Source: Janthinobacterium lividum
GTDB taxonomy: Bacteria; Bacteroidota; Bacteroidia; Sphingobacteriales; Sphingobacteriaceae
Assembly: GCA_050954285.1 (NCBI GenBank)
Contig: JBPBPL010000016.1
Location: forward strand, 4,858 to 68,857
DNA: 64,000 bases
Direction: 5' to 3'
The position numbers and the translations under genes were made by a program. Positions 11,615 to 63,513 of this stretch are shown here, piece by piece (position 1 is the stretch's first letter; each line of letters starts with the position of its first letter). A model generated the notes under the pieces. That model was given only the letters and a program-made list of their open reading frames with translations, was not told the DNA's origin and searched no databases.

Positions 11615-12673
11615 ATGAATTATATATGTACCTGGCTTTGTGCTGATAAAAAAGGTGAAGAAAGCGTGTTTTTCCAAACCGGCGAACTTTCATCCTCCCA
11701 AAAACATCAGAATATTTACTGGCGTTGCATCCTATTGTTTTACGTTACCAGCAAGCGTTTTAATAAACAGGAAAAGCACTTGTTATTTACCAACGTTAAA
11801 CAGTTGCCTAATGTAGATGGAAAATCCGTAGCAAATGTGTTGCATGAATTGGATGTAGAAGTAATTTATACAGATTTTAAATATAAAACACCCAGTAATT
11901 ATTTTGGTTCATTTCAGAATCAGTTTTACGAATTTTCCATACTGGAACATATCGCTCAAAATGATCGGAATTTACAAGATAATTATTTAATTGTTGATTC
12001 TGATTGCATTTTCATTAAGCCGATTCAACGGTTGTTTGATGCGGCCGGCCCGCAAGGTTTTATCTCTTTTGAAGATCCGGTTAAGCCAGATTATGTGATC
12101 AATGGTTTAAGCAGAAACGATCTGAAAACGATTTATCAGGAACTACTTGAAACTGAAATACCAGAAATTCCTTCCTACCATTTAGGAGAGTTTTTACTTT
12201 GTAGCGTTGAGAATATCCGAAAAATTTATGCTGATTTTGAAATCCTCTGGCCTCAATTACTGGAAAGAAACGAAAAAGGTTTGATGAAATTTAATGAAGA
12301 AGCGCATACTTTAAGTTATTTGTATTTCAAAAACGGATTTCGGGCAAGCACTGATACTTCTTTTATGAGGAGAATTTGGACGAATCCCGTTTTTTATCGC
12401 GAAATAAGAAGCTCTGATAGAAATTTGATTATCTGGCATTTGCCTGCCGAGAAAATATTTGGTATCTATACTTTGTACAATTTGTTTTTTCATAAATTAA
12501 CCAATTACGGTTTCCAAATTCCCAATCAGCAGTTTGTTAGTATTGTAGAAAAAGCAGTTAGTGTTCCGCGTTTATCTTTCAGGATGCGATTAAAATATTA
12601 TGCAGTTAGCTATTTTAAAGCTTTGAAAAAAAGATTTAAAAAAGTACCTCTTGTCAAAAGACTTTCTAAATAA
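11615..12673 (+). CDS. hypothetical EPS-locus protein, possible GT-A-fold transferase
   Basis: Long ORF co-oriented with the locus. LIVDSDCIF is a DxD-like motif. I recognise no specific family. Confidence 0.55.
   Translation: MNYICTWLCADKKGEESVFFQTGELSSSQKHQNIYWRCILLFYVTSKRFNKQEKHLLFTNVKQLPNVDGKSVANVLHELDVEVIYTDFKYKTPSNYFGSFQNQFYEFSILEHIAQNDRNLQDNYLIVDSDCIFIKPIQRLFDAAGPQGFISFEDPVKPDYVINGLSRNDLKTIYQELLETEIPEIPSYHLGEFLLCSVENIRKIYADFEILWPQLLERNEKGLMKFNEEAHTLSYLYFKNGFRASTDTSFMRRIWTNPVFYREIRSSDRNLIIWHLPAEKIFGIYTLYNLFFHKLTNYGFQIPNQQFVSIVEKAVSVPRLSFRMRLKYYAVSYFKALKKRFKKVPLVKRLSK
12354..12367 (+). repeat. family-A motif copy inside a CDS
   Basis: ATACTTCTTTTATGAGGAGAATTTGG, read as D-T-S-F-M-R-R-I-W. 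Confidence 0.85.
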
Positions 12674-12691
12674 AGCATCATCAACCTGAAT

Positions 12692-13549
12692 ATGACGATT
12701 GCCGTATTGCTTACCACTTTCAACCGAAAACAGAAAACATTGGCCTGTTTGCAAAACTTGTATAATCAGGCTTTGCCGGAAGATGTACATTTGAAAATTT
12801 TTCTGACGGATGATAATTCAGCTGATGGAACGGCTGATGCTGTAGCAACTGCATTTCCTGAAGTTACTGTTTATCATGGAAATGGCTCCTTATTTTGGGC
12901 CGGAGGGATGCGCAATACTTGGCAAAAAGCTTTAATTACTAATGCTGATTATTATCTGTTGCTGAATGATGATACTTTGTTAACTCATACCGCTATTGCT
13001 TCCCTTTTAAAATGTAGTAACTATGTTAAAAGTAAAGGATCAAAACCGGCAATTTGTGTTGGAAGCACAGCTGATGACGAAACCGGAAAAATCTCTTACG
13101 GAGGTAGAAAATTGCATAATAAAAACAGTTGGAGAGAAGGTTCTTTCGTATTCAGTGAAACAGAATTTGTAAATTGTGATGTGGCAAATGCAAATATTTT
13201 ATTGGTTCCGGCAGCAGTAGTAAACAATTTAGGGATATTATCTACTGCTTTTACTCACGGTTTGGCCGATTACGATTATACGATAAAAGCAAAAAAAGCA
13301 GGCTATGGCTTGGTTGTAGCACCTGGCTTTTTAGGCACTTGTATTGATGATCATGGCAACAACTGGAAATCGGCCAATACAACTTTACAAGAACGAGTTG
13401 CCTATCTCAAAAGTCCTAAAGGATTAGCTTATCACGAATATTTAGGTTTCATAAAAGAGCATTTTCCAAAATCATATCCGGCTGCTTTTACCAAACTCTG
13501 GTTAAAAACTTTGTTTCCGGCGATCTGGGACAAATTCAAAAATAAATAA
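12692..13549 (+). CDS. family 2 glycosyltransferase (rhamnosyltransferase-like)
   Basis: TIAVLLTTFNRK...LTDDNSADGT...LLLNDDT motifs. The stop overlaps the next start (TAATG at 13547-13551). Confidence 0.8.
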   Translation: MTIAVLLTTFNRKQKTLACLQNLYNQALPEDVHLKIFLTDDNSADGTADAVATAFPEVTVYHGNGSLFWAGGMRNTWQKALITNADYYLLLNDDTLLTHTAIASLLKCSNYVKSKGSKPAICVGSTADDETGKISYGGRKLHNKNSWREGSFVFSETEFVNCDVANANILLVPAAVVNNLGILSTAFTHGLADYDYTIKAKKAGYGLVVAPGFLGTCIDDHGNNWKSANTTLQERVAYLKSPKGLAYHEYLGFIKEHFPKSYPAAFTKLWLKTLFPAIWDKFKNK

Positions 13550-14473: not shown

Positions 14474-14517
14474 ATACTTCTTTTATCACACAAAATTTAG
14501 GTTGATAAAAGAAGTAC
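14474..14517. repeat. head-to-head pair of family-A copies forming a 14-bp perfect hairpin
   Basis: TACTTCTTTTATCA (14475-14488) pairs with TGATAAAAGAAGTA (14503-14516), with a 14-nt loop CACAAAATTTAGGT. Located between the 14466 stop and the 14547 start. Confidence 0.92.
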
Positions 14518-15829: not shown

Positions 15830-16978
15830 TTGAAAGTTTTAGTAATTCATACAAGTTACAAGTATCGTGGAGGTGAAGATACTGTTGTGGCTGAAGAAAT
15901 AAAATTACTTCGGCATGCAGGAATGCATGTAGAATTATTAGAATTTAACAATGATGAAAACGCCTTATTAAAACTTTTGCAATTACCTTTTAATGTCCAA
16001 TCATATTATAAAACAAAACAAAAGTTAACAGATTTTAGGCCGGATATTGTTCATATTCATAATCTTCATTTTGGAGGATCACCATCTGTAATTTATGCTA
16101 TTAAAAGAAGTAATACACCATTTGTAACTACGTTGCACAATTTTAGGTTGCTATGTCCTTCGGGTATCCTTTTTAACAACGGAAAACTTTTTCTAGATTC
16201 TTTATATCAAAGTTTTCCTTGGAAAGCAGTGGAACTTGGAGTCTATAAAGATTCTAAATTAATTACTTTCTGGGTAGCTTTATCCATGTACATTCACAAC
16301 AAATTAGGTACTTGGAAAAATTGTAACAAGTATATTGTTTTGAGTGAACATGCCCGAAAATTATTTTTAAATTCAAAGTTGAACTTATCTCAGAACCAGA
16401 TGGTTGTAAAACCAAATTTTTGTTCTGTTCCGGTGTTGCAACCACAAAAGCGAGAAAATCATTTTTTGTATATAGGCAGGCTTTCGGAAGAAAAAGGAAT
16501 CATGCTTCTTTTATCGGTCTTTTCTTCGTGTACTTACAAGGTAAAAATTGCTGGGGATGGTCCGCTGAAAAATGAAGTTATTCAATATGCTGCTAAATAT
16601 CCAAATATAGAATTTATAGGTATTGTAAATAAAGCTGAAGTATTTATTTTATTGCAAAGTTGTTCTGCGCTGCTTTTTCCTTCAGTTTGGTTTGAAGGCA
16701 TGCCTTTAACAATTATAGAAGCTTTTGCCTGTGGCACACCTGTTATTTCATCCAAACTTGGTGCTATGGAAACCATGATTACACCTGAATATAATGGTTT
16801 GCATTTTGAAGCGAATGATAAGGTTGACTTTAGGCAAAAATTAGATCAATGGATACAGCTCAGCGAAGAGGAGAAGAATCGTTATCGTGAAAATGCGCTG
16901 AATTCATTTATTTCTAATTATACAAGTAGTAGAAACTTAGTGCTATTAGTGGATATCTATAATACCGTAATCGCTTAG
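15830..16978 (+). CDS. family 4 (GT-B) glycosyltransferase
   Basis: TTG start. C-terminal EGMPLTIIEAFACGTPVI (EX7E-type GT1/GT4 motif). Confidence 0.8.
   Translation: MKVLVIHTSYKYRGGEDTVVAEEIKLLRHAGMHVELLEFNNDENALLKLLQLPFNVQSYYKTKQKLTDFRPDIVHIHNLHFGGSPSVIYAIKRSNTPFVTTLHNFRLLCPSGILFNNGKLFLDSLYQSFPWKAVELGVYKDSKLITFWVALSMYIHNKLGTWKNCNKYIVLSEHARKLFLNSKLNLSQNQMVVKPNFCSVPVLQPQKRENHFLYIGRLSEEKGIMLLLSVFSSCTYKVKIAGDGPLKNEVIQYAAKYPNIEFIGIVNKAEVFILLQSCSALLFPSVWFEGMPLTIIEAFACGTPVISSKLGAMETMITPEYNGLHFEANDKVDFRQKLDQWIQLSEEEKNRYRENALNSFISNYTSSRNLVLLVDIYNTVIA
16502..16515 (+). repeat. family-A motif copy inside the GT4 CDS
   Basis: ATGCTTCTTTTATC, read as M-L-L-L-S. Confidence 0.85.
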
Positions 16979-18887: not shown

Positions 18888-19838
18888 TTACTCAGCTGGC
18901 GGTTTTGGTATATTTTTCATTTGAAAGCGGGGTTTGTAAGCTGGTTTTACAACTTCTGTTTTTGGCTGATCAGCTTCTGTATCCCTAATATCTGCTACTG
19001 TTTTTACCGGTTCTTTTTTGATACTCTGCCTATTGAATGTAGGTTTAAAAGCAGGTTTTTCTGGTTCCGGTTCTTCGGCCAATAGTGGTTCTCCACTTTT
19101 TTCTTCATCCATTTCAACAACAATTTTTGGAATGTTTTTAGGGTTGAAGCGCGGTTTAAAAGCTGGCTTATCTACTAACTCTTTTATCTCATCGGTAACA
19201 GATTGATCGGTTTCTTGCGGTGTGTCAAAATTCTCAGGAACTGGTTTTAAAGGTGATAACTCATCATCAGATGCTGTTTTTACCGGTTCTTTTTTGATTT
19301 GCTGCATGTTGAACCTGGGTTTAAAAGCAGGTTTAGCAAATGGTTCAATTATAGGTTCAGCTTTCTCGTTTATGGATTCGGTAATAGGTTCTTCTGTTGT
19401 TTTTGGAGCCATTTTCGGATTGAAACGTGGTTTAAAAACCGTAGTTTCAAGACCTGTTTCGCGGATAACTTGTTCTGCTTCTGCTAAAGAAATATCCTTT
19501 TCTGGTATGTTCTGCTCTGATAATTGCACCAGATTATCTTCTTTAAATTTGGGCCTGTCGTTGTCTGTATCCAGGTTTTGAGCAGCAGCAACAGCAATTC
19601 CCTGCACAGCCATATTAGAAATATCTTCTGCTTGTACTGGATGTGGTTTTATAATTATTGACAGCGGATAGGTTCGGCGTAAATAATTGAAGTGGTATTT
19701 TTTGGTATGATCAAAACTTTTTTCGCCCATTAAAGGGTAGTGCTGACTAAATTCTGCAAACAAACCTGGTTCTGTTATTTTTAACTGTGCCAGGTTTATT
19801 TTTTTTTTCTGGAAAAACTCTTCAAAAGTTAGCATCAT
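18888..19838 (-). CDS. hypothetical protein with five KPAFKPRFN-type basic repeats
   Basis: A globular N-terminal region of about 70 aa, then acidic/Pro-rich linkers carrying FKPRFNPK, KPAFKPRFNMQQIKKEPVKT, KPAFKPRFNPKNIPK, KPAFKPTFNRQSIKKEPVKT and KPAYKPRFQMKNIPK. Confidence 0.7.
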   Translation of the reverse strand: MMLTFEEFFQKKKINLAQLKITEPGLFAEFSQHYPLMGEKSFDHTKKYHFNYLRRTYPLSIIIKPHPVQAEDISNMAVQGIAVAAAQNLDTDNDRPKFKEDNLVQLSEQNIPEKDISLAEAEQVIRETGLETTVFKPRFNPKMAPKTTEEPITESINEKAEPIIEPFAKPAFKPRFNMQQIKKEPVKTASDDELSPLKPVPENFDTPQETDQSVTDEIKELVDKPAFKPRFNPKNIPKIVVEMDEEKSGEPLLAEEPEPEKPAFKPTFNRQSIKKEPVKTVADIRDTEADQPKTEVVKPAYKPRFQMKNIPKPPAE

Positions 19839-20723: not shown

Positions 20724-20737
20724 ATGCTTCTTTTATC
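20724..20737 (+). repeat. family-A motif copy, yebC/asd divergent intergenic region
   Basis: ATGCTTCTTTTATCGACTAAAAATTGG. Confidence 0.92.
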
Positions 20738-20829
20738 GACTAAAAATTGGTGTTTCCGTTGATTTGGCCTACACAAAAGCAAAATCTTTTGCATATTTGG
20801 CTAATTAAAATCCATTTATAGTTAAACAA

Positions 20830-21843
20830 ATGAAAGTAGCAGTAGTAGGCGCCACCGGTTTGGTGGGAACGAAAATGTTGCAGGTTCTGGCAGAACGCAA
20901 CTTCCCCGTAACAGAATTAATTCCTGTAGCATCAGAAAAAAGTATTGGTAAGGAAGTTGAGTTTAAGGGAAAGCAGTACAAAGTAGTTTCAGCAGAAACC
21001 GCGATCAGCCAGAAACCGGATATTGCATTATTTTCTGCCGGCGGAAGCACTTCATTGCAGCAGGCGCCGCTTTTTGCAGCAGCCGGAATCACCGTAATTG
21101 ATAATTCATCAGCATGGCGCATGGATCCAACTAAAAAACTGGTTGTTCCCGAAGTTAATGCTGACGTTTTAACTGCAGAAGATAAAATCATTGCGAATCC
21201 CAATTGCTCAACCATACAAATGGTTGTGGCATTAAAACCGTTGCACGATGCTTACAAAATTAAGCGTGTGGTGGTTTCTACTTATCAATCTGTAACCGGA
21301 ACTGGCGTAAAAGCAGTGGAGCAGTTGATGAACGAGCGCAAAGGGATTGACGGCCCAATGGCTTATCCATATAAAATCGATTTAAACGTGTTGCCTCAAA
21401 TTGATGTTTTTACAGAGAATGGCTATACCAAAGAGGAGATGAAAATGATCCTGGAAACCCAAAAAATCATGGGCGACGATAGTATCAAAGTTACCGCAAC
21501 TACAGTTCGGATTCCGGTTATGGGCGGTCACTCAGAATCTGTAAATATTGAGTTTGAAAAGGATTTTGATTTATCCGAAGTAAAAGAATTATTGGAAAAA
21601 GCGCCAGGCGTTGTTGTGGTGGATGATGTTGCGAATCTGAAATATCCGATGCCGCTGGATGCACATGAAAAAGATGACGTTTTTGTAGGAAGAATCCGCA
21701 GAGATGAAAGTCAGGACAATACGCTTAATTGCTGGATCGTTTCTGATAATTTGCGGAAAGGTGCAGCAACAAATGCCATCCAGATTGCAGAATATTTAAT
21801 GGCAAACCATTTAATTGGCGAGCCACAAGAAATAGAAGGATAA
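20830..21843 (+). CDS. asd: aspartate-semialdehyde dehydrogenase
   Basis: MKVAVVGATGLVG... and the NPNCSTIQMV active-site Cys motif. Length and organisation are typical. Confidence 0.95.
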   Translation: MKVAVVGATGLVGTKMLQVLAERNFPVTELIPVASEKSIGKEVEFKGKQYKVVSAETAISQKPDIALFSAGGSTSLQQAPLFAAAGITVIDNSSAWRMDPTKKLVVPEVNADVLTAEDKIIANPNCSTIQMVVALKPLHDAYKIKRVVVSTYQSVTGTGVKAVEQLMNERKGIDGPMAYPYKIDLNVLPQIDVFTENGYTKEEMKMILETQKIMGDDSIKVTATTVRIPVMGGHSESVNIEFEKDFDLSEVKELLEKAPGVVVVDDVANLKYPMPLDAHEKDDVFVGRIRRDESQDNTLNCWIVSDNLRKGAATNAIQIAEYLMANHLIGEPQEIEG

Positions 21844-21852
21844 AAACAGTAT
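21839..21852 (-). repeat. family-B variant motif copy overlapping the asd stop codon
   Basis: GATAAAAACAGTAT. Reverse complement reads ATACTGTTTTTATC. Confidence 0.85.
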
Positions 21853-21864: not shown

Positions 21865-21896
21865 AGGGCGATAAGATAATCTTGTCGCCCTTTTTA
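21865..21896 (+). terminator. rho-independent terminator after asd
   Basis: AGGGCGATAAG-ATAAT-CTTGTCGCCCT (one G-U pair) followed by TTTTT. Confidence 0.75.
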
Positions 21897-21912
21897 CGTC
21901 AATAAAAACAGC

Positions 21913-22806
21913 ATGATCGCTATCACGCATCAAATTTTCCTGGAAGTTGCCGCGCATTTAAGTTTTTCTAAAGCTTCCAAAGCTTTGTTTATCAGTCAGC
22001 CTGCGGTAAGCAAGCAGATTAAAATATTGGAAGATCAGTACAAATTGGCTTTATTTGAACGCAAAGGCAACTCCATTTTAATTACCGAAGCCGGACAAAA
22101 GCTTTACCAGTATTTGCTGGAAGCGCGTGAAATAGAGAAGAAAATCGAGTTTGATCTGTTAACCCTAAGTAAAGGAGCGGATGCTTCCGCTTTTTTAAAA
22201 TTAGGTGCAAGCACAACTATTGCCCTGTACGTTTTGCCTTCAATTCTATCCGGTTTTCAGGAAAAATTTCCCAATATCGATATCCAATTGGTCAACCGAA
22301 ATTCTGAAAACGTAATGAATGCTTTGTTGAATCATGAAATTGATGTTGGTATTATTGAGGTGGAAAATAAACTGACCACCGTTTCTTACCAGCATTTTAT
22401 GAATGATGAAGTCATTGCTGTTTGTTCTAAAAAAAGTTCTCTGGCCGGAAAAAGCTTAGCGATAGAAGAATTAAAAGCTGTTCCACTGGCTTTACGCGAA
22501 CGTGGTTCGGGAACATTACACGCACTTTTGCACGAACTTGCAAATCATCATATCAAACCATCAGATTTAAAAGTTAAAATTCGATTAGGCGGAACAGAAG
22601 CACTGAAAAACTTTTTACTGGCCGATGAATGCCTTGGGTTTTTGCCTCGTCCTTCTATTTCGCGTGAATTAAATTCGGGAGAACTGGTAGAAGTTCCGGT
22701 TGTCGGTTTACAAATTAAACGCGAGTTCTATTTTATCCGCAGAAAAGGAAGCGAAGAATATGGTTTAACAAAGCAATTTATTCGTTATTGCAAACAATCA
22801 TTATAA
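21913..22806 (+). CDS. LysR-family transcriptional regulator
   Basis: N-terminal wHTH LSFSKASKALFISQPAVSKQIKILE followed by a LysR substrate-binding domain. Confidence 0.9.
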   Translation: MIAITHQIFLEVAAHLSFSKASKALFISQPAVSKQIKILEDQYKLALFERKGNSILITEAGQKLYQYLLEAREIEKKIEFDLLTLSKGADASAFLKLGASTTIALYVLPSILSGFQEKFPNIDIQLVNRNSENVMNALLNHEIDVGIIEVENKLTTVSYQHFMNDEVIAVCSKKSSLAGKSLAIEELKAVPLALRERGSGTLHALLHELANHHIKPSDLKVKIRLGGTEALKNFLLADECLGFLPRPSISRELNSGELVEVPVVGLQIKREFYFIRRKGSEEYGLTKQFIRYCKQSL

Positions 22807-24731: not shown

Positions 24732-24740
24732 AAAAACATT

Positions 24741-24754
24741 GATAAAAACAGTAT
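24741..24754 (-). repeat. family-B variant motif copy after the DJ-1/PfpI stop
   Basis: Reverse complement reads ATACTGTTTTTATCAATGTTTTTTTAG. The extension is shared with the 47249 copy. Confidence 0.88.
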
Positions 24755-29284: not shown

Positions 29285-29298
29285 ATACTTCTTTTACC
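29285..29298 (+). repeat. family-A motif copy between the convergent 28545 ORF and clpB
   Basis: ATACTTCTTTTACCACCTATTTTTCAG. Confidence 0.88.
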
Positions 29299-29313
29299 AC
29301 CTATTTTTCAGTA

Positions 29314-45564: not shown

Positions 45565-45577
45565 ATACATTTTTAAG

Positions 45578-48052: not shown

Positions 48053-48066
48053 ATACTTCTTTTATC
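48053..48066 (+). repeat. family-A motif copy 3 nt after the GH3 stop
   Basis: ATACTTCTTTTATCGGCATAAAATCAAG. Near-identical over 26 nt to the copy at 54292. Confidence 0.92.
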
Positions 48067-48079
48067 GGCATAAAATCAA

Positions 48080-49143: not shown

Positions 49144-49157
49144 ATGCTTCTTTTACC
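49144..49157 (+). repeat. family-A motif copy supplying the ORF start codon
   Basis: ATGCTTCTTTTACCAGATAAAAATCC, translated as M-L-L-L-P-D-K-N-P. Confidence 0.9.
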
Positions 49158-52537: not shown

Positions 52538-52554
52538 CTCAATAAATTTAGGGC

Positions 52555-52568
52555 GATAAAAGAAGTAT
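52555..52568 (-). repeat. family-A motif copy after the methyltransferase-like stop
   Basis: Reverse complement reads ATACTTCTTTTATCGCCCTAAATTTATTG. Confidence 0.9.
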
Positions 52569-52598: not shown

Positions 52599-53195
52599 AT
52601 GATTTTCGATTTTTCTACTGATTATATTTTAGAAGATGAAGCTGCTATACTTCGTCCGCTAACGCAAGATGATTACAAGCTGTTGCTTCCATTTGCTTTG
52701 CAAGAAACCAACATCTGGAAATATTCTTTGATACCTGCAGCCGGGGCAGAAAACTTGAAAAGATACATTGAATCTGCTTTAATTGCACGAAAAGAAAAAC
52801 GGGAATACGCATTTATCGTATTCGATAAAAAGCAACAAAAATATGCCGGCTGTACGCGTTTTTATGATATTCAGCTTCAAAATAAAACCCTGCAACTGGG
52901 CTATACCTGGTACGGAAAAGATTTTCAGGGAACCGGTTTAAACAAACATTGCAAGTTTTTACTACTTGATTTTGCTTTTGAAAAAATGGAAATGGAACGG
53001 GTAGAATTTCGCGCAGATAACAACAATAAAAGAAGTATTGCCGCTATGCAAAGCATCGGCTGCACAATAGAGGGCGTGTTGCGAAAGCATTTGCCTTTGC
53101 CGGATGGCAACCGCCGGGATAGTATAGTTCTGAGTATTTTAAAAGATGAATGGATAGCCGGTTTAAAAGCAAATCTTCAGCAAAAGCTAACGTAG
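52599..53195 (+). CDS. GNAT-family N-acetyltransferase (RimJ/RimL-like)
   Basis: ILRPLTQDD...FQGTGLNKHCKFLLLDFAFE...RVEFRADNNNKRS pattern. The track start is TTG 52578; the ATG at 52599 is more likely. Confidence 0.85.
   Translation: MIFDFSTDYILEDEAAILRPLTQDDYKLLLPFALQETNIWKYSLIPAAGAENLKRYIESALIARKEKREYAFIVFDKKQQKYAGCTRFYDIQLQNKTLQLGYTWYGKDFQGTGLNKHCKFLLLDFAFEKMEMERVEFRADNNNKRSIAAMQSIGCTIEGVLRKHLPLPDGNRRDSIVLSILKDEWIAGLKANLQQKLT
53025..53038 (-). repeat. family-A core only (13/14, no extension) inside the GNAT CDS
   Basis: AATAAAAGAAGTAT, read as N-K-R-S-I. Confidence 0.6.
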
Positions 53196-53213: not shown

Positions 53214-53227
53214 ATACTGTTTTTATC
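53214..53227 (+). repeat. family-B variant motif copy after the GNAT stop
   Basis: ATACTGTTTTTATCAGTCTAAATATCAGG. Confidence 0.88.
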
Positions 53228-53298
53228 AGTCTAAATATCAGGATGGCATTTTGTTGTCAAAATCCCAACTTTTTTACCTGTAAAATTGTATTATCAGT

Positions 53299-53782: not shown

Positions 53783-54307
53783 ATGATATTTACAGAAAAC
53801 CCGGTTATTGTTACCCTCAAAATTAACGCAGAAGCTGCTGCTTATTTTACTGATTTGCGCAAGCAATATTTTCCTGCCGAACGCAATTATCTGGATGCGC
53901 ATTTAACGCTGTTTCATCATTTACCGGGCACTGAGCACTCTTTATTTGAGTTGGTAAAAACAGTATGTGCGCAGCAAAAACTACTATTGCTGCAAGTTGC
54001 ACAAGTAGTTAGCATTGGTGCAGGGGTTGCTTTTAAAATAGAATGCGAAGAGCTTAAAAAAATGCACAAAAATTTGCAGCAACAATGGCAGCAATGGCTT
54101 ACACCTCAAGATAAACAAGCACTTTGGCCGCATATTACGATTCAGAATAAAGTTGACCGTACAACAGCTTTAAAAACGCAACAACAATTGAGCACGAGCT
54201 TTCAACCTTTCGAAATTCAGGGTTTGGGATTATCATTTTGGGAATACCTTGGTGGCCCCTGGAAGTTACTGGAAACGGTTGATTTTATGCCGATAAAAGA
54301 AGTATAA
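53783..54307 (+). CDS. 2H phosphoesterase / 2'-5' RNA ligase-like protein
   Basis: Two HxT-type motifs, HLTLF and HITIQ. Confidence 0.7.
   Translation: MIFTENPVIVTLKINAEAAAYFTDLRKQYFPAERNYLDAHLTLFHHLPGTEHSLFELVKTVCAQQKLLLLQVAQVVSIGAGVAFKIECEELKKMHKNLQQQWQQWLTPQDKQALWPHITIQNKVDRTTALKTQQQLSTSFQPFEIQGLGLSFWEYLGGPWKLLETVDFMPIKEV
54292..54305 (-). repeat. family-A motif copy covering the last codons and stop of the 2H-phosphoesterase gene
   Basis: Reverse complement reads ATACTTCTTTTATCGGCATAAAATCAACC. The gene reads P-I-K-E-V-stop. Confidence 0.92.
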
Positions 54308-54746: not shown

Positions 54747-57464
54747 CTATTGTACTTTGTATCGGTAATTCATCCGGCCAATATTGCCGTCTTTATCAAT
54801 TCCTTCGGCAATTACGCGATAATTTCCTTTGCCATCAGCATTGTAAAACTCAAAAGAAGCGTTACCTTTTTCATCTGTTAGCACGCGCGGATTCCAGTAA
54901 ATGGTGCTCCGGTAATCTAAGCCTTGCATCGTGCTGCGGGTAACTTCGTATTTGGGCGAATAAAAAACACGGCTGCTGGTATAGCCTTTCGGCACAAAAG
55001 TAACCTTGCCCGGGTTCGGGATCAGATCCTGAATATCTTTCATCGATACTTTTTTATGCTCTACTTTTTTCATATTTACCACCAGTACGCCATTAGTGCC
55101 ATAAGTACGGTTGATGCCGCTTAAATCATCTTTTAAAAATACTTCAATAGATTCGATTTCAGCTGATTGCAAACTATTTAAGTAAGAAATATCTACCGGC
55201 ATTCCACCTACAAAAGCCTGAACCGGCGTTTTGTTGCCAGCCTGGTAATCCCGGCGCACGTACAGGTTATTATCTACATAAGTTAACCCGAACAAGCTGC
55301 CTTGCAAGCAAGTTAAAAACATGGCACAATCCATCAGCCTGTTTCCAGGGATCAATTGATCGGGGATCATACTCAAACCGGTTAAAGCCGGGTAATCTAC
55401 GTGGCTCGGTTTTTTCACCTCAACTACGCCCTTAATAGTTACCTCTTTAAGCGTGCGGCCATTAAAATATTGCTTTTTACCATTTTGCAGATAAACGTTC
55501 AGCGTACTATCTATATTCAGCACCTCATCCGGCTGCTCCGGATTTTTGTTGACAGCCTGCGCAGCGGTTCCGCTAAGCGTAATCATCATATTTCTATTTC
55601 CTGTACTTCCACCGGCAGTCAGAATTACTTTAGATGAATCCCGAACCAGCACTTTTGGAAAGGTAAAAATACCGTTGGTATTGGTTACCACCTGGGTAGA
55701 AAAATTATGATCAGGCACCTGTAATTTTACCACACCACGTGACAGCGGCAAACCGGAAAGATCCCGTAAAGTACCGCTGATATCGATACCAGCCTCCGGG
55801 TAAAAAGTAATTTCCGGTGAAGTGCCAGCGAGGATGGCCTGGTAATTAAACCTGCGGTACCCTTGTGTCAGCATGAGCACATCCAGTTCGGCAGCAGTTT
55901 GTTCATGTGGGTTTTTGAAGTAATAATTGGGTTTTTCGATATACCCTTTTAGTTCGGAAGTGAGCAAAAGATTAGTCATGATGGTTGTTTCTGCATTTTC
56001 ATCAAATGGAACCTTACTCTCATCAATTACCGCAACCGATAAGTTGGCTTCCGACGGCACCGCTTTATTTTTAGCTGTTACGTTGATTTTGACTTTTTCG
56101 CGGGTAACGTATGCTGTTTTTACCGAACTTAAATTGATACCCAACTGATCGTTGTGCTGAATGAAGACAATGCGTTCTGAAACCGGATGCCCATCCGCAG
56201 AGAACAACGTTAGTTGCACAATCCCCGTTGGGAATTTACTTTTCGGAATCGAAGCACTGTAAACTAAAGCCTGTAAAGGTGTTTTTGCTGCATAACAAAT
56301 AATGCCGCTGCTGCGTGCAATAATGTAAAAAGATTTGTTCTGGTATTTTTTTAGAAAAGTATCATTGGTGGAAATTCTCAAGAATAAATTATTCTCATCC
56401 GTATTATTTATTCCCATACTGATGCCTTCGCTCATTGCTTTTGGCAGGTTAAGGGTTGATTTTGAGCCATCTGCAAAAGTCAAATTTGCCCGGTAGGTTT
56501 TACCAGCTTCGGGTATCAGTGCAAAAGTGCCCATTCCTAAACTGGAACCTGATAAATCTGCCACTGTTTTGCCATCATTATCAACCACCGTACCTTTTGC
56601 ACTAATGCCTAAACCATTGCCAGCTAAAGCTTTAAAAGCAATTTTTGTACTGATGCCGGTAATCAGATCACCGCCTTCCGGGAAAAATTGAACATCAGGC
56701 GTGGCCGTTGCCGTACGTAAAAAAAATGTGTTGGTAGTTGTTTTTTTATCATTGGTAATAACCGTAAATAAAGTTCCGGTAGCAAGTGCTGTACCTGGTT
56801 TTGTATTGATATTGATTGGTAAAAAACCATTTTGATCGGTTGTGCCTTTGCCTTTTGCTACGGTTTCATAATCCACTTCTACATGCCAGCTTACTTTTTT
56901 GTTGGCATAAGGTGTGCCGTTTCCATCTTTATAATAAATGCCGGCGTTGGCTTTGGCGGGATTATCTTTTGCAGCACCTGAAAATGCTATTTTGGTGAGT
57001 ACTGTATTCTCCACTAAATCGCCAATAGCAATATTTTTATTAAAGAAATAATCCGGATCGTAGTTGCGCATATAGTTGGTATAAGCGCGGATATGATAAT
57101 TGCCCTGTTTGTAAACCAAGGGCTGCAAAGTAATATCGGCAGAAGCAATGCTGTTGACAACAGGCAATTTCAGGCTTTCTATCAATGAATCCCGGTTGGT
57201 ATAAACATCTATATAAACAATTTTGCTTAGTAAGGATGGCTCGTGCAAACCGGCAGTAAGGTAGGCTTTGAACCAAATGGTATCGCCAACCGCATAATAA
57301 GGCTTATCAAAGTGAAGGTAAACTTTTTCGACTGGATGATCTTCTGTAAACTTGGCCGTTTTGGCAATAATAGTGTTTAAACTAACGGTATCCTGAGCAA
57401 AAAGGGTAGAACTGAAAACGGCAAATAAAAAAAGTGTACAGTATAAAAACCTGGCCAAGCGCAT
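54747..57464 (-). CDS. large secreted protein (MG2/carboxypeptidase-regulatory-like N-terminal domains, Plug-like region near the C-terminus)
   Basis: Signal peptide ending FAQ. KVYLHFDKPYYAVGDTIWFKAY is MG2-like. IESIEVFLKD...YGTNGVLVVNMKK is Plug-like. Confidence 0.75.
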   Translation of the reverse strand: MRLARFLYCTLFLFAVFSSTLFAQDTVSLNTIIAKTAKFTEDHPVEKVYLHFDKPYYAVGDTIWFKAYLTAGLHEPSLLSKIVYIDVYTNRDSLIESLKLPVVNSIASADITLQPLVYKQGNYHIRAYTNYMRNYDPDYFFNKNIAIGDLVENTVLTKIAFSGAAKDNPAKANAGIYYKDGNGTPYANKKVSWHVEVDYETVAKGKGTTDQNGFLPININTKPGTALATGTLFTVITNDKKTTTNTFFLRTATATPDVQFFPEGGDLITGISTKIAFKALAGNGLGISAKGTVVDNDGKTVADLSGSSLGMGTFALIPEAGKTYRANLTFADGSKSTLNLPKAMSEGISMGINNTDENNLFLRISTNDTFLKKYQNKSFYIIARSSGIICYAAKTPLQALVYSASIPKSKFPTGIVQLTLFSADGHPVSERIVFIQHNDQLGINLSSVKTAYVTREKVKINVTAKNKAVPSEANLSVAVIDESKVPFDENAETTIMTNLLLTSELKGYIEKPNYYFKNPHEQTAAELDVLMLTQGYRRFNYQAILAGTSPEITFYPEAGIDISGTLRDLSGLPLSRGVVKLQVPDHNFSTQVVTNTNGIFTFPKVLVRDSSKVILTAGGSTGNRNMMITLSGTAAQAVNKNPEQPDEVLNIDSTLNVYLQNGKKQYFNGRTLKEVTIKGVVEVKKPSHVDYPALTGLSMIPDQLIPGNRLMDCAMFLTCLQGSLFGLTYVDNNLYVRRDYQAGNKTPVQAFVGGMPVDISYLNSLQSAEIESIEVFLKDDLSGINRTYGTNGVLVVNMKKVEHKKVSMKDIQDLIPNPGKVTFVPKGYTSSRVFYSPKYEVTRSTMQGLDYRSTIYWNPRVLTDEKGNASFEFYNADGKGNYRVIAEGIDKDGNIGRMNYRYKVQ
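56111..56124 (+). repeat. family-B variant motif copy inside the large secreted-protein CDS
   Basis: ATGCTGTTTTTACCGAACTTAAATTGATACC. The gene reads V-K-T-A-Y. Confidence 0.8.
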
Positions 57465-57560: not shown

Positions 57561-57631
57561 ATGCTGTTTTTAACGCATAAAAAAAACGACGGACAATTTA
57601 GCCGTCGTTTTTTAGTAGATAAAAGAAGTAT
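57561..57631. repeat. 71-bp long imperfect palindrome: family-B copy (+), GC stem-loop, family-A copy (-)
   Basis: Left arm is ATGCTGTTTTTAACGCATAAAAAAAACGACGG. The right arm's reverse complement is ATACTTCTTTTATCTACTAAAAAACGACGG. Confidence 0.9.
57586..57613. terminator. bidirectional terminator; serves the minus-strand GH-A-like gene
   Basis: AAAAAAA-ACGACGG-ACAATTTAG-CCGTCGT-TTTTT, embedded in the 71-bp palindrome. Confidence 0.75.
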
Positions 57632-57762: not shown

Positions 57763-57857
57763 ATACTTCTTTTATACCTGTAAATTTCGGTTTGTAACCG
57801 ATACCATTAGAAAAAAGTACAATACCTTTCACAATTTTAGGTCGATAAAAGAAGCAT
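57763..57857. repeat. 95-bp composite element bounded by inverted family-A copies
   Basis: ATACTTCTTTTATACCTGTAAATTT at 57763 (+) and GATAAAAGAAGCAT at 57844-57857 (-). Same length and shared internal blocks (GAT.C...A.AAAAAAG.ACA) as 2930-3024. Confidence 0.9.
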
Positions 57858-59161: not shown

Positions 59162-59959
59162 TTAAGCTTCTGGTAGGTAGATTTTTCCACTAAGATAAGT
59201 AACCGCTTTGCCAGCTATTTTTACACGGTTGCCGCTATTTTCGCACCAGATCTCTCCTTTGCGGGCAGAGAGCTGGTAAGCGTGCATACTGTTTTTATCC
59301 AACCTTTTTGCCCAATAAGGAATAAGTGTGCAATGTGCAGAACCCGTAACCGGATCTTCGGGAACACTGCAAGACGGCGCAAAAAAGCGGGAAACGAAAT
59401 CAACTTCTTCGCCGGGAGCAGTTACAATAATGCCGATCACATCTATTTTACCGAGCAAAGCAAAATCCGGTTTCAGGTTGATGATAGCTGCTTCGGATTC
59501 ATAAACCACAAAATAATCACGGGATTTCTGGATGATAGAAGGCGTTGCATTTCCGCCCAAAGCTTCCAGCAAAATATCCGGTACGGCACAAGGTTGGGGT
59601 GGGCGCGAAGGGAAGTCCAACGTGTAAAGATCACCGGATTTGGAAACTACGAGTGTACCGGCAACCTTGGTTTTAAAGTTTATGCTTTCGCCCACATAAT
59701 TTAATTCTGTATAAAGAATATGTGCCGATGCTAAAGTTGCATGTCCGCACAAGTCAATTTCGAGTTCTGGTGTAAACCATCTCAGCATAAAACCATCGCC
59801 ATCAGGAACGAAGAATGCTGTTTCTGCCAGGTTATTTTCTAAAGCAATTTGCTGCATGATTTCATCAGGCAGCCATTCTGTTAGCGGACAAACAGCAGCC
59901 GGGTTTCCGCTAAAAAGCCGATCGGTAAAAGCATCGGCCTGATAAATTTGTATATTCAT
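59162..59959 (-). CDS. PhzF-family isomerase
   Basis: YQADAFTDRLFSGNPAAV, DLCGHATLA and TGSAHC motifs. Confidence 0.9.
   Translation of the reverse strand: MNIQIYQADAFTDRLFSGNPAAVCPLTEWLPDEIMQQIALENNLAETAFFVPDGDGFMLRWFTPELEIDLCGHATLASAHILYTELNYVGESINFKTKVAGTLVVSKSGDLYTLDFPSRPPQPCAVPDILLEALGGNATPSIIQKSRDYFVVYESEAAIINLKPDFALLGKIDVIGIIVTAPGEEVDFVSRFFAPSCSVPEDPVTGSAHCTLIPYWAKRLDKNSMHAYQLSARKGEIWCENSGNRVKIAGKAVTYLSGKIYLPEA
59285..59298 (+). repeat. family-B variant motif copy inside the PhzF CDS
   Basis: ATACTGTTTTTATCCAACCTTTTTG. The gene reads L-D-K-N-S-M. Confidence 0.85.
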
Positions 59960-60937: not shown

Positions 60938-61693
60938 TTAAGCATACTTAAATAAACCCAACTGCATACTGTTTTTATCGCCCATATTTTGGGTTCGAAT
61001 TTGGTTGACCAGCAAATGTGCTTTGCGCGTAGGATCGGGAATGCGGTAACCGGTGATGCATTGTTTGATGATGGCTAAGCTTTGTTCCAGATTGATGCGG
61101 TGGCCGGGAGAAATGAAAACGGGATTTACTTTGTTTTTGGTACGCAATGCTGCACCGATTACTTCATCGCGGTCGTAAATTAAACTTTCTGAACCAGCTT
61201 TTTCCGGCAAAGGTTCAAACTTTCCGGTGAGTAAACTTTTGGCACAACCCATTGTCGGGCTGTCTGTTATCAAGCCAAAATGTGTAGCAATGCCCATACG
61301 CCGTGGGTGCGCAATTCCTTGTCCGTCCAAAACCATTAAATCCGGTTTTATTTTGAGCTGGTTCCAGGCTTTTAGCAACGAAGGAATTTCGCGGAAAGAA
61401 AGCAAGCCAGGAATATATGGAAAGGTTGTTTTGCTAATGATGGTTGATTTTTCAATTTCCTGCAAATCCGGAAAACTCAAAACAATGATGCCGGCATAAA
61501 CCGTTTCTTCATATTTATTAAAAGAAATATCGGCATCGGCGATGGTTTGGATTGGTTTTGAAAGCGGCTCGATGCTGATTTGGGTACGCAATTGTTTCTG
61601 CAGTTCAATTGCCTGAGCAGGAGAAAGTTGTTCGTATTCTTCAACAGAAATTTGTGGCATAAAAGAAGCATTTCGATTTAAGCCAGTATCCAT
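60938..61693 (-). CDS. nfi: endonuclease V (deoxyinosine 3' endonuclease)
   Basis: ADADISF..., SFREIPSLL and VLDGQGIAHPRRMGIATHFG motifs. Confidence 0.9.
   Translation of the reverse strand: MDTGLNRNASFMPQISVEEYEQLSPAQAIELQKQLRTQISIEPLSKPIQTIADADISFNKYEETVYAGIIVLSFPDLQEIEKSTIISKTTFPYIPGLLSFREIPSLLKAWNQLKIKPDLMVLDGQGIAHPRRMGIATHFGLITDSPTMGCAKSLLTGKFEPLPEKAGSESLIYDRDEVIGAALRTKNKVNPVFISPGHRINLEQSLAIIKQCITGYRIPDPTRKAHLLVNQIRTQNMGDKNSMQLGLFKYA
60966..60979 (+). repeat. family-B variant motif copy inside nfi
   Basis: ATACTGTTTTTATCGCCCATATTTTGG. The gene reads G-D-K-N-S-M. Confidence 0.85.
61658..61671 (-). repeat. family-A motif copy inside nfi
   Basis: Reverse complement reads ATGCTTCTTTTATGCCACAAATTTC. 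The gene reads N-A-S-F-M-P-Q-I. Confidence 0.88.
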
Positions 61694-61768
61694 AAATTTT
61701 TAAAAATGTTTCAGTTCAAATCAAACCAAATCTTTTTAAATACTGATGAATTCAGTTTACAATCAAAA

Positions 61769-62341
61769 CTATAAATGCGTATTGCTTCTGAAAAGTTTGA
61801 TGGAAATAGCCAGCAGGATAATACCGAAAGCTTTTCGCAAAACGCTTAACCCGGTTTTGCCCAATAATCTTTCCAGCACTTGCACGTTTTTCAATACCAG
61901 ATAGACAAAAATGGTATTCAAGGTAATTCCAACTAAAATATTTTGCGTCTGATATTCTGATTTTAGAGAAAGCAAGGTCGTCATGGTTCCGGCGCCGGCA
62001 ATTAAAGGAAAAGCCAACGGAACGATAGAAGCGGTAGAAGAAATTTCCTCTTCCTTAAATAATCTGATGCCTAAAATTAATTCCACAGCGATCACAAAAA
62101 TAACCAGCGAACCGGCGATGGCAAAAGAAGCAACATCCAGATTGATAATGGCCAGGAGCTGATCTCCTACAAAAAGAAAAATGATCATCAGCACCAAAAC
62201 GGTTAAAGCTGCTTTTTCAGATTCAATTTTTCCAGCTTTTTGTCGTAAATCAATGATGATCGGGATGGTGCCTATAATATCAATGATGGCAAAAAGAATC
62301 ATGGTGACAGAGAGGATTTCTCTAGGATTGAATGTTAGCAT
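61769..62341 (-). CDS. MarC-family membrane protein
   Basis: Six TM segments in 190 aa. The IFAIIDIIGTIPII opening is typical of UPF0056/MarC. Confidence 0.85.
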   Translation of the reverse strand: MLTFNPREILSVTMILFAIIDIIGTIPIIIDLRQKAGKIESEKAALTVLVLMIIFLFVGDQLLAIINLDVASFAIAGSLVIFVIAVELILGIRLFKEEEISSTASIVPLAFPLIAGAGTMTTLLSLKSEYQTQNILVGITLNTIFVYLVLKNVQVLERLLGKTGLSVLRKAFGIILLAISIKLFRSNTHL

Positions 62342-63513
62342 GGTTTTATCGGATTACTTTTTTCCTGTGATCTTAAAAGAAAGGTATATAAAAAACCAGC
62401 CAGAATTAAAAATGCGGATAAAAAGAAAACATAATGCACAGAAAAACCGGAGATCAAACCTGCACTGATCGGACCTAAAATTTGCCCAATGGAAGCATAC
62501 GACTGGTTGATACCCAAAGTTTCTCCTTGTTCACTTTGATCAACCCGGTCAGCAATAATGGAATTTAACATCGGGTTTCGCACACCATTAAACAAGCCGT
62601 AACCGCACATGCATGCCGCAAAGAAAATTAGTTTGGTAGCAAAACCGGAAAGCAGCATTGCCGCAAAACAAAAAACAAGTGATAAAAGAAGTATTAGTGT
62701 TCGGGAAGAAATCAGTTTGGTAATATATGGAACAGCCAGCTGCATAAGAATGCCGGAAATACCAAAGCCGGCAAAGAAAACGCCAATTTGAAAAGGCGTA
62801 ATTTTCAAAACATCTGCTGTGAAAGTCTGGAAACCGATAATCATGGTGAACTGCGCCATTGTCAATAAAAAGCCGATAAAAATAGCACTGCCTACAACTG
62901 GTTTTTTTAGTACGGTGACCAGAGATTTGAAGCTGAATTTACTCTCGTTCTTACGTTCGTGTTCGGGATTGGTTTCCTGTAAAAAAAAGTAGGTACATAA
63001 TACGCCGATCAAAGCTATTCCTGCCGAAAAGTAAAACGGTGCCTGCAAACTTACTTTACTTAAAACGCCACCGATAGCAGGCCCGATAACAAAACCAAAG
63101 CCAAAAGCCGAACCGATGATGCCAAAGTTTTTGGCGCGGTCTTCCGGCGTTGAACTATCTGAAACCATTGCTTGTGCTACAGAAATGTTTCCGCCGGTAA
63201 TGCCGTCTAAAATCCTGGCAGCAAAAAGCATAATTAAACTCCGTGCTTCTGCAAAAAGGACAAAAGAAATGCAGGTACCAATTAGGCTGATAATTAATAT
63301 TGGTTTGCGACCATACTTATCCGACAGCGAGCCTAAGACCGGTGTGGCAAAAAACTGGGCGATGGAAAATGATGCGGTTAATAAACCTAAAGTTTGCTCG
63401 GTGATGCCAAACTGCTTGCCGTAAGGATAAATCAGCGGAACGATTATGCCAAAACCTAAAGAGTTGATTACGCATATAAAAACCAGCACCCATAAGTTTT
63501 TATTATTTTTCAT
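62335..63513 (-). CDS. MFS transporter (TetA/DHA1-like)
   Basis: Twelve TM segments and the GSLSDKYGRKP motif A. Overlaps the MarC gene by 7 nt. Confidence 0.9.
   Translation of the reverse strand: MKNNKNLWVLVFICVINSLGFGIIVPLIYPYGKQFGITEQTLGLLTASFSIAQFFATPVLGSLSDKYGRKPILIISLIGTCISFVLFAEARSLIMLFAARILDGITGGNISVAQAMVSDSSTPEDRAKNFGIIGSAFGFGFVIGPAIGGVLSKVSLQAPFYFSAGIALIGVLCTYFFLQETNPEHERKNESKFSFKSLVTVLKKPVVGSAIFIGFLLTMAQFTMIIGFQTFTADVLKITPFQIGVFFAGFGISGILMQLAVPYITKLISSRTLILLLSLVFCFAAMLLSGFATKLIFFAACMCGYGLFNGVRNPMLNSIIADRVDQSEQGETLGINQSYASIGQILGPISAGLISGFSVHYVFFLSAFLILAGFLYTFLLRSQEKSNPIKPC
62681..62694 (-). repeat. family-A motif copy inside the MFS CDS
   Basis: Reverse complement reads ATACTTCTTTTATCACTTGTTTTTTG. 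The gene reads I-L-L-L-S-L-V-F. Confidence 0.88.

Follow-up and report, generated by a model that had tools for sequence, protein, structure and literature searches.

Biased transmission lets a DNA signal shape whole genomes and proteomes, and the textbook example of this is provided by uptake sequences. To our knowledge, they have been described from only two proteobacterial families, and competence has barely been studied in Bacteroidota. Here we analyzed a stretch of 64,000 nucleotides, called the window throughout, from contig JBPBPL010000016.1 (positions 4,858 to 68,857; assembly GCA_050954285.1, listed under Janthinobacterium lividum with a Sphingobacteriaceae lineage). Within and between its unrelated genes it carries many copies of a 27-nt word, ATRCT(TC|GT)TTTTAYCnnnnAAAAWnTnnG. 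This word is under constraint as a double-stranded DNA unit and confined to a single uncultured clade of Mucilaginibacter-like Sphingobacteriaceae. As alignments with relatives show, substitution rather than insertion of the Rickettsia type gave rise to its copies in genes, at positions that were pre-adapted and for the most part permissive.

The closest described systems are the uptake signal sequences (USS) of Pasteurellaceae and the DNA uptake sequences (DUS) of Neisseriaceae, together DUES. Published shares of uptake sequences in open reading frames (ORFs) are 65%, 49% and 34.5%, at poorly conserved residues (PMC2817400); their frame usage likewise follows common codons and residues (PMC2817400; 10.1101/2025.10.24.684340), and inverted repeats in terminators as well as frame bias have been reported (10.1101/2025.10.24.684340). 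Like DUES, the word is short, exceeds expectation hundreds-fold, occurs about once per kb on both strands, is confined to one clade with dialect-like variants, and consists of a core followed by an A/T-tract. Shared features are further the intergenic enrichment, the inverted pairs near gene ends, and the location of one third to one half of the copies in ORFs, through substitution, in codon-compatible frames and at poorly conserved residues (PMC2817400, PMC3630211, 10.1101/2025.10.24.684340). We judge the likeness to USS, already drawn in an initial annotation of the window, to be apt. Unlike DUES, however, the word occurs in Bacteroidota rather than Proteobacteria, its AT-rich sequence is unrelated and, with a 27-nt profile around a 14-nt core, longer, it has two discrete core variants, TC and GT, and one quarter to one third of its copies reside in inverted-pair units with a fixed length of ~94 bp, some of them with conserved interiors. 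Inverted-repeat copies of DUES are expected to act as terminators; here, the pairs fold, and solo copies adjoin terminator-like G+C-rich hairpins rather than form them. DUES are defined functionally, by biased uptake. Among the window genes that were scanned, none codes for competence machinery with a sequence-specific receptor.

Other abundant short elements share single features with it. HIP1 (GCGATCGC) of cyanobacteria is hyper-abundant in coding and non-coding DNA through substitution as well; selection maintains it, with conservation at orthologous positions (PMC5861425), and it was lately tied to transformation efficiency (10.1101/2024.09.10.611283). HIP1 is an 8-nt palindrome associated with orphan methyltransferases and distributed phylum-wide, whereas the word is 27 nt long, non-palindromic, limited to a sub-genus clade and strongly intergenic. 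Repetitive extragenic palindromic (REP) sequences, including REPIN-RAYT systems and bacterial interspersed mosaic elements (BIMEs), are also clade-specific, intergenic near 3' ends, and arranged in inverted doublets of ~100 bp and in larger mosaic units. However, REPs are extragenic and form stable G+C-rich hairpins, while the word forms none and one third to one half of its copies are coding and arose by substitution; unlike in REPINs, most copies are true singletons, and no multi-copy RAYT candidate was found among 864 ORFs. The inverted ends, the fixed length and one presence/absence case recall miniature inverted-repeat transposable elements (MITEs), with no recognisable target-site duplication. 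As in Rickettsia palindromic elements (RPEs), copies lie in frame within unrelated genes at permissive positions, but RPEs are insertions of ~100-150 bp that add residues; since sites aligned with motif-free relatives show no insertion and no length change, the parallel with RPEs proposed in the initial annotation fails. Chi and KOPS/AIMS are over-represented chromosomal words that are read as DNA, too, yet Chi and KOPS comprise 5-8 nt and are strongly skewed to one (leading) replication strand, compared to 27 nt and a strand ratio of 28:21 here. The word is thus no member of USS/DUS or HIP1 by sequence or taxon and lacks the defining features of REP, RPE and Chi/KOPS.

In the window, ATGCTTCTTTTA is present in 20 exact copies compared to 0.02 expected, a number reached in none of 100 shuffles. 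Alignment of the exact copies of ATRCTTCTTTTA (n=34) reveals the longer profile ATRCTTCTTTTA-YC-(R)nnn-AAAAW-n-T-nn-G of ~27 nt, with the A/T-tract placed one helical turn from the core. A weight matrix trained on these 34 copies, applied with a cut-off score of >=12 (the top score in shuffled sequence was ~10), finds 49 copies in the window, 27 within and 22 between ORFs, where gene models are longest-ORF calls. They split into 28 on the plus and 21 on the minus strand; the GC skew of the window is mostly of one sign. The core is near-invariant, and single-mismatch variants are rare. A second core, ATRCTGTTTTTA, has 18 exact copies and the same YC and A/T-run extension as the main form. At core positions 6-7, TC and GT are common and the intermediates TT and GC rare, so that two discrete variants exist. 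The word is non-palindromic: its sole self-pairing, TTTTA with TAAAA, amounts to five A-T pairs and is gone where the downstream run is a T-run. A hairpin reading of the solo word was rejected, given this stem of merely five A-T pairs and a T-run downstream in about one fifth of the copies. A promoter reading was rejected likewise, with a sigma-70-type scan at chance level (42 found, 45 expected) and no Bacteroidota TTTG/TAnnTTTG visible by eye in the word.

The distribution of the word reveals a sharp clade limit. The window sequence matches phyllosphere metagenomes, which contain 10-44% of its 31-mers. Among ClpB loci from 80 species, by which the window is placed in the Sphingobacteriaceae, the closest is that of a complete Mucilaginibacter metagenome-assembled genome (MAG), L001, with 96% ClpB identity. 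L001 carries 31 copies in 23 kb, and in the other 79 clpB loci, including Mucilaginibacter at 86% ClpB identity, the word is essentially absent. Along a gradient of CrtD identity to the window, contigs at 76-78% hold 0.67-0.88 copies per kb, and contigs at 72-73% or less hold none; the overall density in relatives with >=76% CrtD identity is ~0.7-1.3 copies per kb. Scanning of metagenome contigs yielded 120 loci, 114 of which contain >=0.3 copies per kb and comprise 900 kb with 827 copies. Where their genes overlap the window, kinship was checked and indicates the same clade (97% identity for ClpB, 77% for CrtD). The clade DNA sampled, in pieces of up to ~23 kb, amounts to ~1 Mb with ~0.8-1 copy per kb; as this large sample was chosen by exact pattern, it favors consensus-like, mostly intergenic copies. 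Among 2.9 million viral contigs, three single matches were found, and no contig with more than one. The third base of the core varies by lineage, ATGC:ATAC being 17:0 in L001 and 20:14 in the window, with the A form commoner in intergenic copies; this looks like dialect-like drift. A full-text literature search with literal 12-mers gave only chance primer-type matches, and in the searchable literature we found no report of the word and, for Bacteroidota including Mucilaginibacter, nothing relevant on natural transformation or on uptake sequences.

In k-mer counts of motif-free Mucilaginibacter and Pedobacter loci, no analogous enriched word was detected. The counts showed only two repeats of other kinds. 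In Mucilaginibacter flavus (L003:5290-5330, 7037-7070), the heptamer CAGTTTG, which bears no relation to the word, forms short tandem arrays, and in Pedobacter jejuensis (L005:2840-2938, 5764-6578), a perfect hairpin of the classical REP-like type, ATGGTCTGTG-GGGA-CACAGACCAT, is present in five copies.

L001 is syntenic with the window over 21-42 kb at ~81% nucleotide identity, and nearly all coding and intergenic copies lie at orthologous positions in both, often with 25-27 of the 27 bases identical. At third-codon positions, the two agree in 92.3% of cases within the 14-nt core, compared to 62.5% outside the word (P=1.7e-6), and the extension reaches 86%; over the whole 27 nt the value is 89%, and immediately beyond, starting with the first flanking base, it is only 57-66%. 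For A/T-ending third positions only, identity is 94% inside and 64% outside the word (P=3.6e-9). The test is not circular, because L001 played no part in the choice of sites. Coding, solo intergenic and paired intergenic copies furthermore share one 27-nt profile. The claim of the initial annotation that the DNA is the conserved unit is thus strongly supported.

How the coding copies arose can be read from relatives that lack the word. These show no indel at the sites in genes 33594-34385, 34385-34951, 36749-37390 and 37410-37802 or in CrtD, and none of eight sites aligned with motif-free orthologues has changed in length, so that the copies arose by substitution. The encoded residues differ: IKEA corresponds to LADA, VIDA or VVDN, VKEA to VKRN or VGLN, and D/NAVFT to ASLFN or KIVFD. 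In CrtD, (N/D)ASFTYQK of the clade corresponds to REYFNYQK in its deepest members and to xDYFNYQK in other Mucilaginibacter; accordingly, F-x-YQK is ancestral and A-S derived. Since the deepest members carry the word at 0.67-0.88 per kb and yet lack the NASFTYQK site, this site was gained after the spread of the word, and sites accumulate over time. The copy in orotate phosphoribosyltransferase (OPRTase) coincides with the STGKSS loop, which is universally conserved, and hardly more than an L-to-I change was required. Both STGKSS and F-x-Y-Q-K are conserved in motif-free Mucilaginibacter and Pedobacter, and because part of the peptide is ancestral, the two sites were pre-adapted and required few substitutions.

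These alignments, suggested in the initial annotation as a check, show no indel and differing residues, and, as assumed there, proteins accommodate the word mostly in segments that are variable in alignments and solved homologues. LLL-frame copies, for instance, fall into signal peptides or membrane helices. In threonine synthase, where L082 has the identical 27-mer, the copy occupies a loop with gaps in solved homologues. The recurrent peptide was imposed by the DNA only in part: A-S and K-E-A differ in motif-free orthologues, but F-x-Y-Q-K in CrtD and STGKSS in OPRTase are kept in motif-free genera. Directly after the third motif site of CrtD, clade members only have an insertion of variable length (window 25594-25640, L084:10790-10930) with up to 42 residues of KGEGW/NGE repeats. 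It derives from a purine-rich tandem DNA repeat and not from the word, and insertion of an element at this place was therefore rejected.

With respect to reading frames, a scan of the window recovered all copies cited in the initial annotation in the frames given there. Above threshold are the x-A/T-S-F copies at 12354, 23713, 25042, 27149, 41761, 47653, 49421, 50128 and 61658, the (V/I/A)-K-E-(A/V) copies at 33902, 37661, 40782, 48692 and 54292 (overlapping a stop codon), the M/I-L-L-L copies at 16502, 42812, 49144 and 62681, and the x-K-R-S copy at 53025; below it are 15139 (a mismatch at core position 12) as well as 45782 and 10113 (two mismatches each). Host genes are unrelated, as had been stated, and encode threonine synthase, CrtD, a histidine kinase, OPRTase, Fmt, NamZ, a GH3 enzyme, an SDR protein, an alpha/beta hydrolase, a GNAT protein, endonuclease V, an MFS transporter and glycosyltransferases. 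Our recount by frame for the 27 ORF copies is ASF 10, MLLL 6, CFFY 0, KEA 7, xKxS 4 and 0 for the reverse frame containing TAA, whose disuse is thus confirmed.

The use of few frames had been taken as an argument for DNA-level selection. It does not serve as one: four of the five stop-free frames are used in the window and all five in ~1 Mb. A codon-usage model predicts shares of 4% (MLLL), 29% (ASF), 2% (CFFY), 56% (KEA) and 9% (xKxS). As CFFY is the rarest frame under codon usage, its absence among 27 copies is true for the window and unremarkable; complete ORFs in ~1 Mb of clade DNA contain 149 exact copies (0.64 expected), and five of them use CFFY (3.4%, with 3.7% expected from codon usage). 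Enrichment per frame in this sample is 112- to 811-fold for all five stop-free frames, the deviation from the codon model consisting mainly of an MLLL excess and a KEA deficit. The comparison of frames with codon usage thus singles out no special rule, and frame usage reflects compatibility with common codons and residues. Relative to the gene, 16 coding copies in the window have the same and 11 the opposite orientation (131 and 115 in ~1 Mb); the word shows no bias relative to transcription.

With 22 of the 49 copies in the ~13% of the window that is intergenic, enrichment there is 5-fold. The initial annotation had missed the mostly intergenic location and the many inverted pairs of ~94 bp. 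In the ~1 Mb sample, ~70% of copies are intergenic and ~12-fold denser than in ORFs, based on crude ORF calls and pattern-selected loci. The share in ORFs ranges from 32 to 55% (276 of 865 exact copies in ~1 Mb, 27 of 49 in the window). Three inverted pairs in the window (2930/3024, 14474/14517, 57763/57857) fold as long hairpins; the second begins 8 nt past a stop codon and has a stem of ~14 bp (-23.8 kcal/mol), and by eye the interior of the third looks like that of the first. In ~1 Mb, the distance between outer ends of convergent inverted pairs peaks sharply at 91-94 nt; distances of 43 and of 56-58 nt form minor classes. A total of 79 units of ~94 bp were found. A partner at the right distance is present for 31% of the strong intergenic copies and absent for 69%; decayed (weak) partners account for just 1%, so that solo copies are true singletons and not decayed pairs. 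In a subfamily of 20 units, which occur several times per locus, both the interior (…TTGGTGTTTGCATCAATTTAAATAAACCAAAACCAAATGCCTGCCA…) and the flanks are conserved; the latter end in inverted AGAGCCTGTTTAAA, which yields a nested mosaic unit of ~165 bp; the outer repeat GAGCCTGTTTAAA at its end is not enriched in the window. One unit of L001 (5229-5323) lies within a ~156-nt indel relative to the window. The A/T-rich flanks of the ~94-bp units show no recognisable target-site duplication.

As the best reading of these findings we tentatively propose a transmission drive, i.e., molecular drive, of the uptake-sequence kind. A component that handles incoming or recombining DNA would recognise the word, for which the sequence-biased DNA-uptake step of natural transformation, as known for USS/DUS, is the best precedent. 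Fragments bearing the word would be transmitted preferentially, and chance mutations that create or improve a copy would spread by recombination. Purifying selection on proteins would set where, and in which frame, copies survive; if so, frame usage follows codon compatibility without any special rule. Inside genes, copies arose by point substitutions at half-matching positions where the protein tolerates the encoded peptide, and were then kept even at synonymous positions. We chose this reading for the combination of DNA-unit constraint, spread by substitution, restriction to one clade, a near-invariant core and absence of transcription bias; molecular drive of uptake sequences is the only established process known to us that gives this combination. 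The sharp clade limit, the near-absence from viral contigs and the sparse coding copies in a low-GC glycan locus also speak for it.

Several observations weigh against such a drive. All carriers found so far are uncultured (MAGs or metagenome contigs), and no uptake sequence from Bacteroidota was found in the searchable literature. For a single receptor, two discrete core variants with so few intermediates would be unusual, and the intergenic enrichment, 5-fold and ~12-fold, reaches or exceeds the top of the range of uptake sequences described so far. Given their fixed length, the conserved interiors and flanks of the 20-member subfamily and the one case within an indel, the ~79 units of ~94 bp look like duplicative mobility beyond drive alone. 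In its specific form the proposal is held with still less confidence: the word could be the first uptake-sequence-type self-DNA tag outside Proteobacteria, by which an uptake or recombination preference in a phyllosphere-associated Mucilaginibacter clade may have rewritten ~3,000 sites per genome, protein-coding ones among them (extrapolated from ~0.8-1 copy per kb and a 3.7-Mb relative) and seeded ~94-bp modules.

The inverted pairs also suggest a different origin, in which the word is the arm of a selfish intergenic element of REP/REPIN or MITE type, bound and mobilised by a RAYT-type Y1 or other transposase acting in trans, with solo and coding copies persisting through an effect of that protein or of a host factor recruited to the arm. 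The peak of pair distances with its minor classes, the subfamily present several times per locus, the unit present in one species and absent from the other, and the enrichment between genes near 3' ends are all expected of such an element, and REPIN populations typically have sharp clade limits of this kind. We regard this main rival as less likely than the drive. One third to one half of the copies lie in ORFs by substitution rather than insertion, synonymous-site conservation acts on solo coding copies, more than two thirds of the strong intergenic copies have no partner, intact or decayed, and the word is no stable palindrome, its A-T stem being lost with the T-run. Besides the missing target-site duplication, an all-against-all comparison of the 864 ORFs from ~1 Mb revealed no multi-copy (transposase) family, a single-copy RAYT being outside the reach of this comparison. 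Both the uptake-type drive and a REPIN/MITE-type element may be involved, in that a mobile module was built from, or exploits, a favored word.

Still less probable is a high-affinity site for a clade-specific chromosomal protein, serving nucleoid organisation, condensin loading or global regulation, and maintained by ordinary selection on each copy. It would account for conservation confined to 27 nt, for the dispersed distribution and for the orientation independent of transcription, and an A/T-tract one helical turn from the core could give bendability. However, nucleoid proteins and regulators have degenerate sites, in contrast to the thousands of near-invariant cores of 12-14 nt seen here; individual selection on ~3,000 sites, some of them amino-acid-changing, is hard to sustain, the copies follow stop codons instead of marking promoters, and the inverted-pair units are left unexplained.

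A by-product of sequence-context-specific mutation or repair bias, comparable to the enrichment of oligomers by very-short-patch repair, would produce copies by substitution in coding and non-coding DNA of one clade only. It is very improbable, as no known repair bias comes near a specificity of 27 nt combined with two discrete core variants, and it leaves the inverted-pair units unexplained as well. It would also mark phage DNA, where no viral contig has more than one copy; this is a weak test, since the phages of the clade are possibly unsampled.

A function at the RNA level, in 3'-UTR stability, termination or pairing with small RNAs, might be considered for the 14 of the 22 intergenic copies in the window that lie within ~60 nt past a stop codon, in either orientation; near stop codons and upstream of terminator-like hairpins, they are probably transcribed, and the inverted pairs fold as long hairpins. 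The copies at 45551 and 48053 lie between a stop codon and such a hairpin, so that the terminator is not the solo word. A search of RNA-seq runs found none that contains the sequence. With both orientations found after and inside genes, a mini-hairpin that is not maintained, and no RNA gene or match in the whole window by Rfam (gathering threshold) and ARAGORN, such a function is highly improbable. Selection for the peptides themselves (NASF..QK, IKEA, LLLS) with secondary DNA similarity, for which only the conservation of F-x-YQK and STGKSS in motif-free genera speaks, is refuted by the use of five frames on both strands, the mostly non-coding location, the conserved synonymous positions, the unrelated host proteins and the differing core residues in motif-free orthologues.

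If the drive is true, genome-wide drive of the uptake-sequence type evolves repeatedly, and natural transformation with a novel sequence-specific DNA receptor is pointed to in Bacteroidota. The word would also be a ready tag for genetic access to uncultured or hard-to-transform Sphingobacteriaceae. Under any mechanism, it constitutes a clean natural case of non-coding constraint that overrides synonymous drift and alters amino acids in unrelated enzymes, and a sequence marker by which contigs of this clade are identified in metagenomes. All features are collected in Table 1.

Table 1. Copies of the 27-nt word and inverted-pair units. Positions refer to the window unless a locus is named; (+) and (-) after a gene denote its strand.
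Feature	Position	Strand	Score	Frame or peptide	Remarks
Inverted-pair unit, intergenic	2930..3024	+ 2930-2956; - 2998-3024	28.4; 30.1		95 bp, 94 nt between outer 5' ends
Solo intergenic copy	3793..3819	+	29.3		42 nt past stop of OmpA-family gene
Solo intergenic copy	7242..7268	-	28.2		33 nt past stop of Wzc-like gene
Coding copy	12354..12380	+	22.6	x-A/T-S-F, DTSFMRR	Exopolysaccharide (EPS)-locus gene of no assigned function, 11615-12673(+)
Inverted pair	14474..14517	+ 14474-14500; - 14491-14517	34.8; 25.5		44 bp, 43 nt between outer 5' ends
Coding copy	16502..16528	+	28.9	M-L-L-L, GIMLLLSVF	GT4 glycosyltransferase gene
Variant-core copy, coding	19271..19297	+			ATGCTGTTTTTA
Solo intergenic copy	20724..20750	+	36.8		Between divergent genes
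Variant-core copy	21826..21852	-			ATACTGTTTTTA; 3' end of asd
Variant-core copy, intergenic	21888..21914	-			ATGCTGTTTTTA
Coding copy	23713..23739	+	29.1	ASF, YASFTGQK	Threonine synthase
Variant-core copy	24728..24754	-			ATACTGTTTTTA; overlaps 3' end of DJ-1/PfpI-like gene (24147-24731), extends into following spacer
Coding copy	25042..25068	+	32.8	ASF, NASFTYQK	CrtD
Coding copy	25345..25371	+	22.1	NNTFFTDEKM	CrtD; core ATACTTTTTTTA
Coding copy	25579..25605	-	17.2	QVKGVL	CrtD; strand opposite to gene
Variant-core copy, coding	26488..26514	+	12.3	AILFLPVFF	Histidine kinase, membrane segment
Coding copy	27149..27175	+	32.8	ASF, NASFSTQK	Histidine kinase
Solo intergenic copy	29285..29311	+	28.6		3 nt past clpB stop; orthologous copy in L001
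Intergenic copy	32020..32046	+	32.9		Orthologous copy in L001
Intergenic copy	32087..32113	+	34.7		Overlaps 3' end of RecD-like helicase gene
Variant-core copy	33853..33879	+		DAVFT	DUF3822 gene; relatives ASLFN or DNVYH
Coding copy	33889..33915	-	17.4	KEA, SVKEAD	DUF3822 gene; relatives VKRN or VGLN
Variant-core copy	34776..34802	+		NAVFT	RsmD-like methyltransferase gene; relatives KIVFD or KIIFE
Solo intergenic copy	36124..36150	-	28.0
Coding copy	37129..37155	-	21.1	STGKSSI	OPRTase
Coding copy	37648..37674	-	24.0	SIKEAS	SRPBCC-like gene; relatives LADA, VIDA or VVDN, no indel
Overlapping inverted pair of variant cores, intergenic	39001..39030				ATACTGTTTTTAT..ATAAAAACAGTAT; identical in L001
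Solo intergenic copy	40083..40109	-	31.0		11 nt past stop codon
Coding copy	40782..40808	+	15.7	KEA, VIKEAQ	fmt(-)
Coding copy	41189..41215	+	21.6	TDKTSI	fmt(-)
Variant-core copy, coding	41480..41506	+			fmt
Coding copy	41748..41774	-	26.8	ASF, DASFKQQ	NamZ(-); weaker in L001
Coding copy	42721..42747	-	13.0	LYLPLLRGK	NamZ(-)
Coding copy	42799..42825	-	32.5	LMLLLSANF	NamZ(-), signal peptide
Intergenic copy	42890..42916	+	32.4		Adjoins NamZ start codon
Solo intergenic copy	44273..44299	+	32.7		29 nt past stop codon
Solo intergenic copy	45551..45577	+	25.2		Stop codon before, terminator-like G+C-rich hairpin (45575-45597) after
Variant-core copy, coding	47236..47262	-			GH3
Coding copy	47653..47679	+	31.7	NASFTDH	GH3 beta-glucosidase, variable loop of Fn3-like domain
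Solo intergenic copy	48053..48079	+	30.1		Stop codon before, terminator-like G+C-rich hairpin (48078-48103) after
Coding copy	48679..48705	-	19.3	FAKEAL	SDR gene
Copy supplying called ATG start	49144..49170	+	32.6	MLLLPDKN	Gene without assigned function
Coding copy	49421..49447	+	37.8	NASFIAQN	Same gene as copy 49144
Variant-core copy, coding	49699..49725	+
Coding copy	50128..50154	+	18.8	FTSFIMQK	Alpha/beta hydrolase
Solo intergenic copy	52542..52568	-	33.6		Fills 40-nt spacer
Coding copy	53012..53038	-	19.0	NNKRSI	GNAT gene
Variant-core copy, intergenic	53214..53240	+	13.4
Variant-core copy, coding	53940..53966	-
Copy overlapping stop codon	54279..54305	-	30.1	PIKEV*	2H-phosphoesterase gene
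Variant-core copy, coding	56111..56137	+	15.4	SVKTAY
Variant-core copy, intergenic	57561..57587	+
Solo intergenic copy	57605..57631	-	26.1
Inverted-pair unit, intergenic	57763..57857	+ 57763-57789; - 57831-57857	26.8; 34.1		95 bp, 94 nt between outer 5' ends
Variant-core copy, coding	59286..59312	+
Variant-core copy	60966..60992	+	21.1	GDKNSM	Endonuclease V(-)
Coding copy	61645..61671	-	30.5	NASFMPQ	Endonuclease V(-), near N-terminus
Coding copy	62668..62694	-	25.5	LILLLSLVF	MFS transporter(-), membrane helix
Members of 20-member subfamily	L102:572-665, 3302-3396; L201:1425-1518, 3442-3534; L203:1871-1964, 4064-4158				14 further loci

Some further observations concern the surroundings of the copies. 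In the polysaccharide-synthesis locus (4000-18000, GC 30-35%), coding copies amount to ~2 in 14 kb, compared to ~0.6 per kb elsewhere, and the intergenic copy density is normal. Next to clpB, the window has zeta-toxin-like and DUF4145 genes (27775-29222), which are replaced in L001 (12667-18108) by an unrelated segment of 5.4 kb with seven intergenic word copies and none in ORFs; this is a variable islet. Window positions 1-2900, which end at the first inverted-pair unit, contain no ORF of more than 121 aa and no Rfam match; they may represent non-coding DNA or the remains of a decayed gene. Finally, two ORFs on the minus strand are of unusual composition: 40192-40647 encodes a secreted low-complexity protein of nearly all G and T residues (GTGT, TTGTG and MRG repeats), and 18888-19838, with no family match, has five to six KPAFKPRFN peptide repeats separated by acidic spacers.

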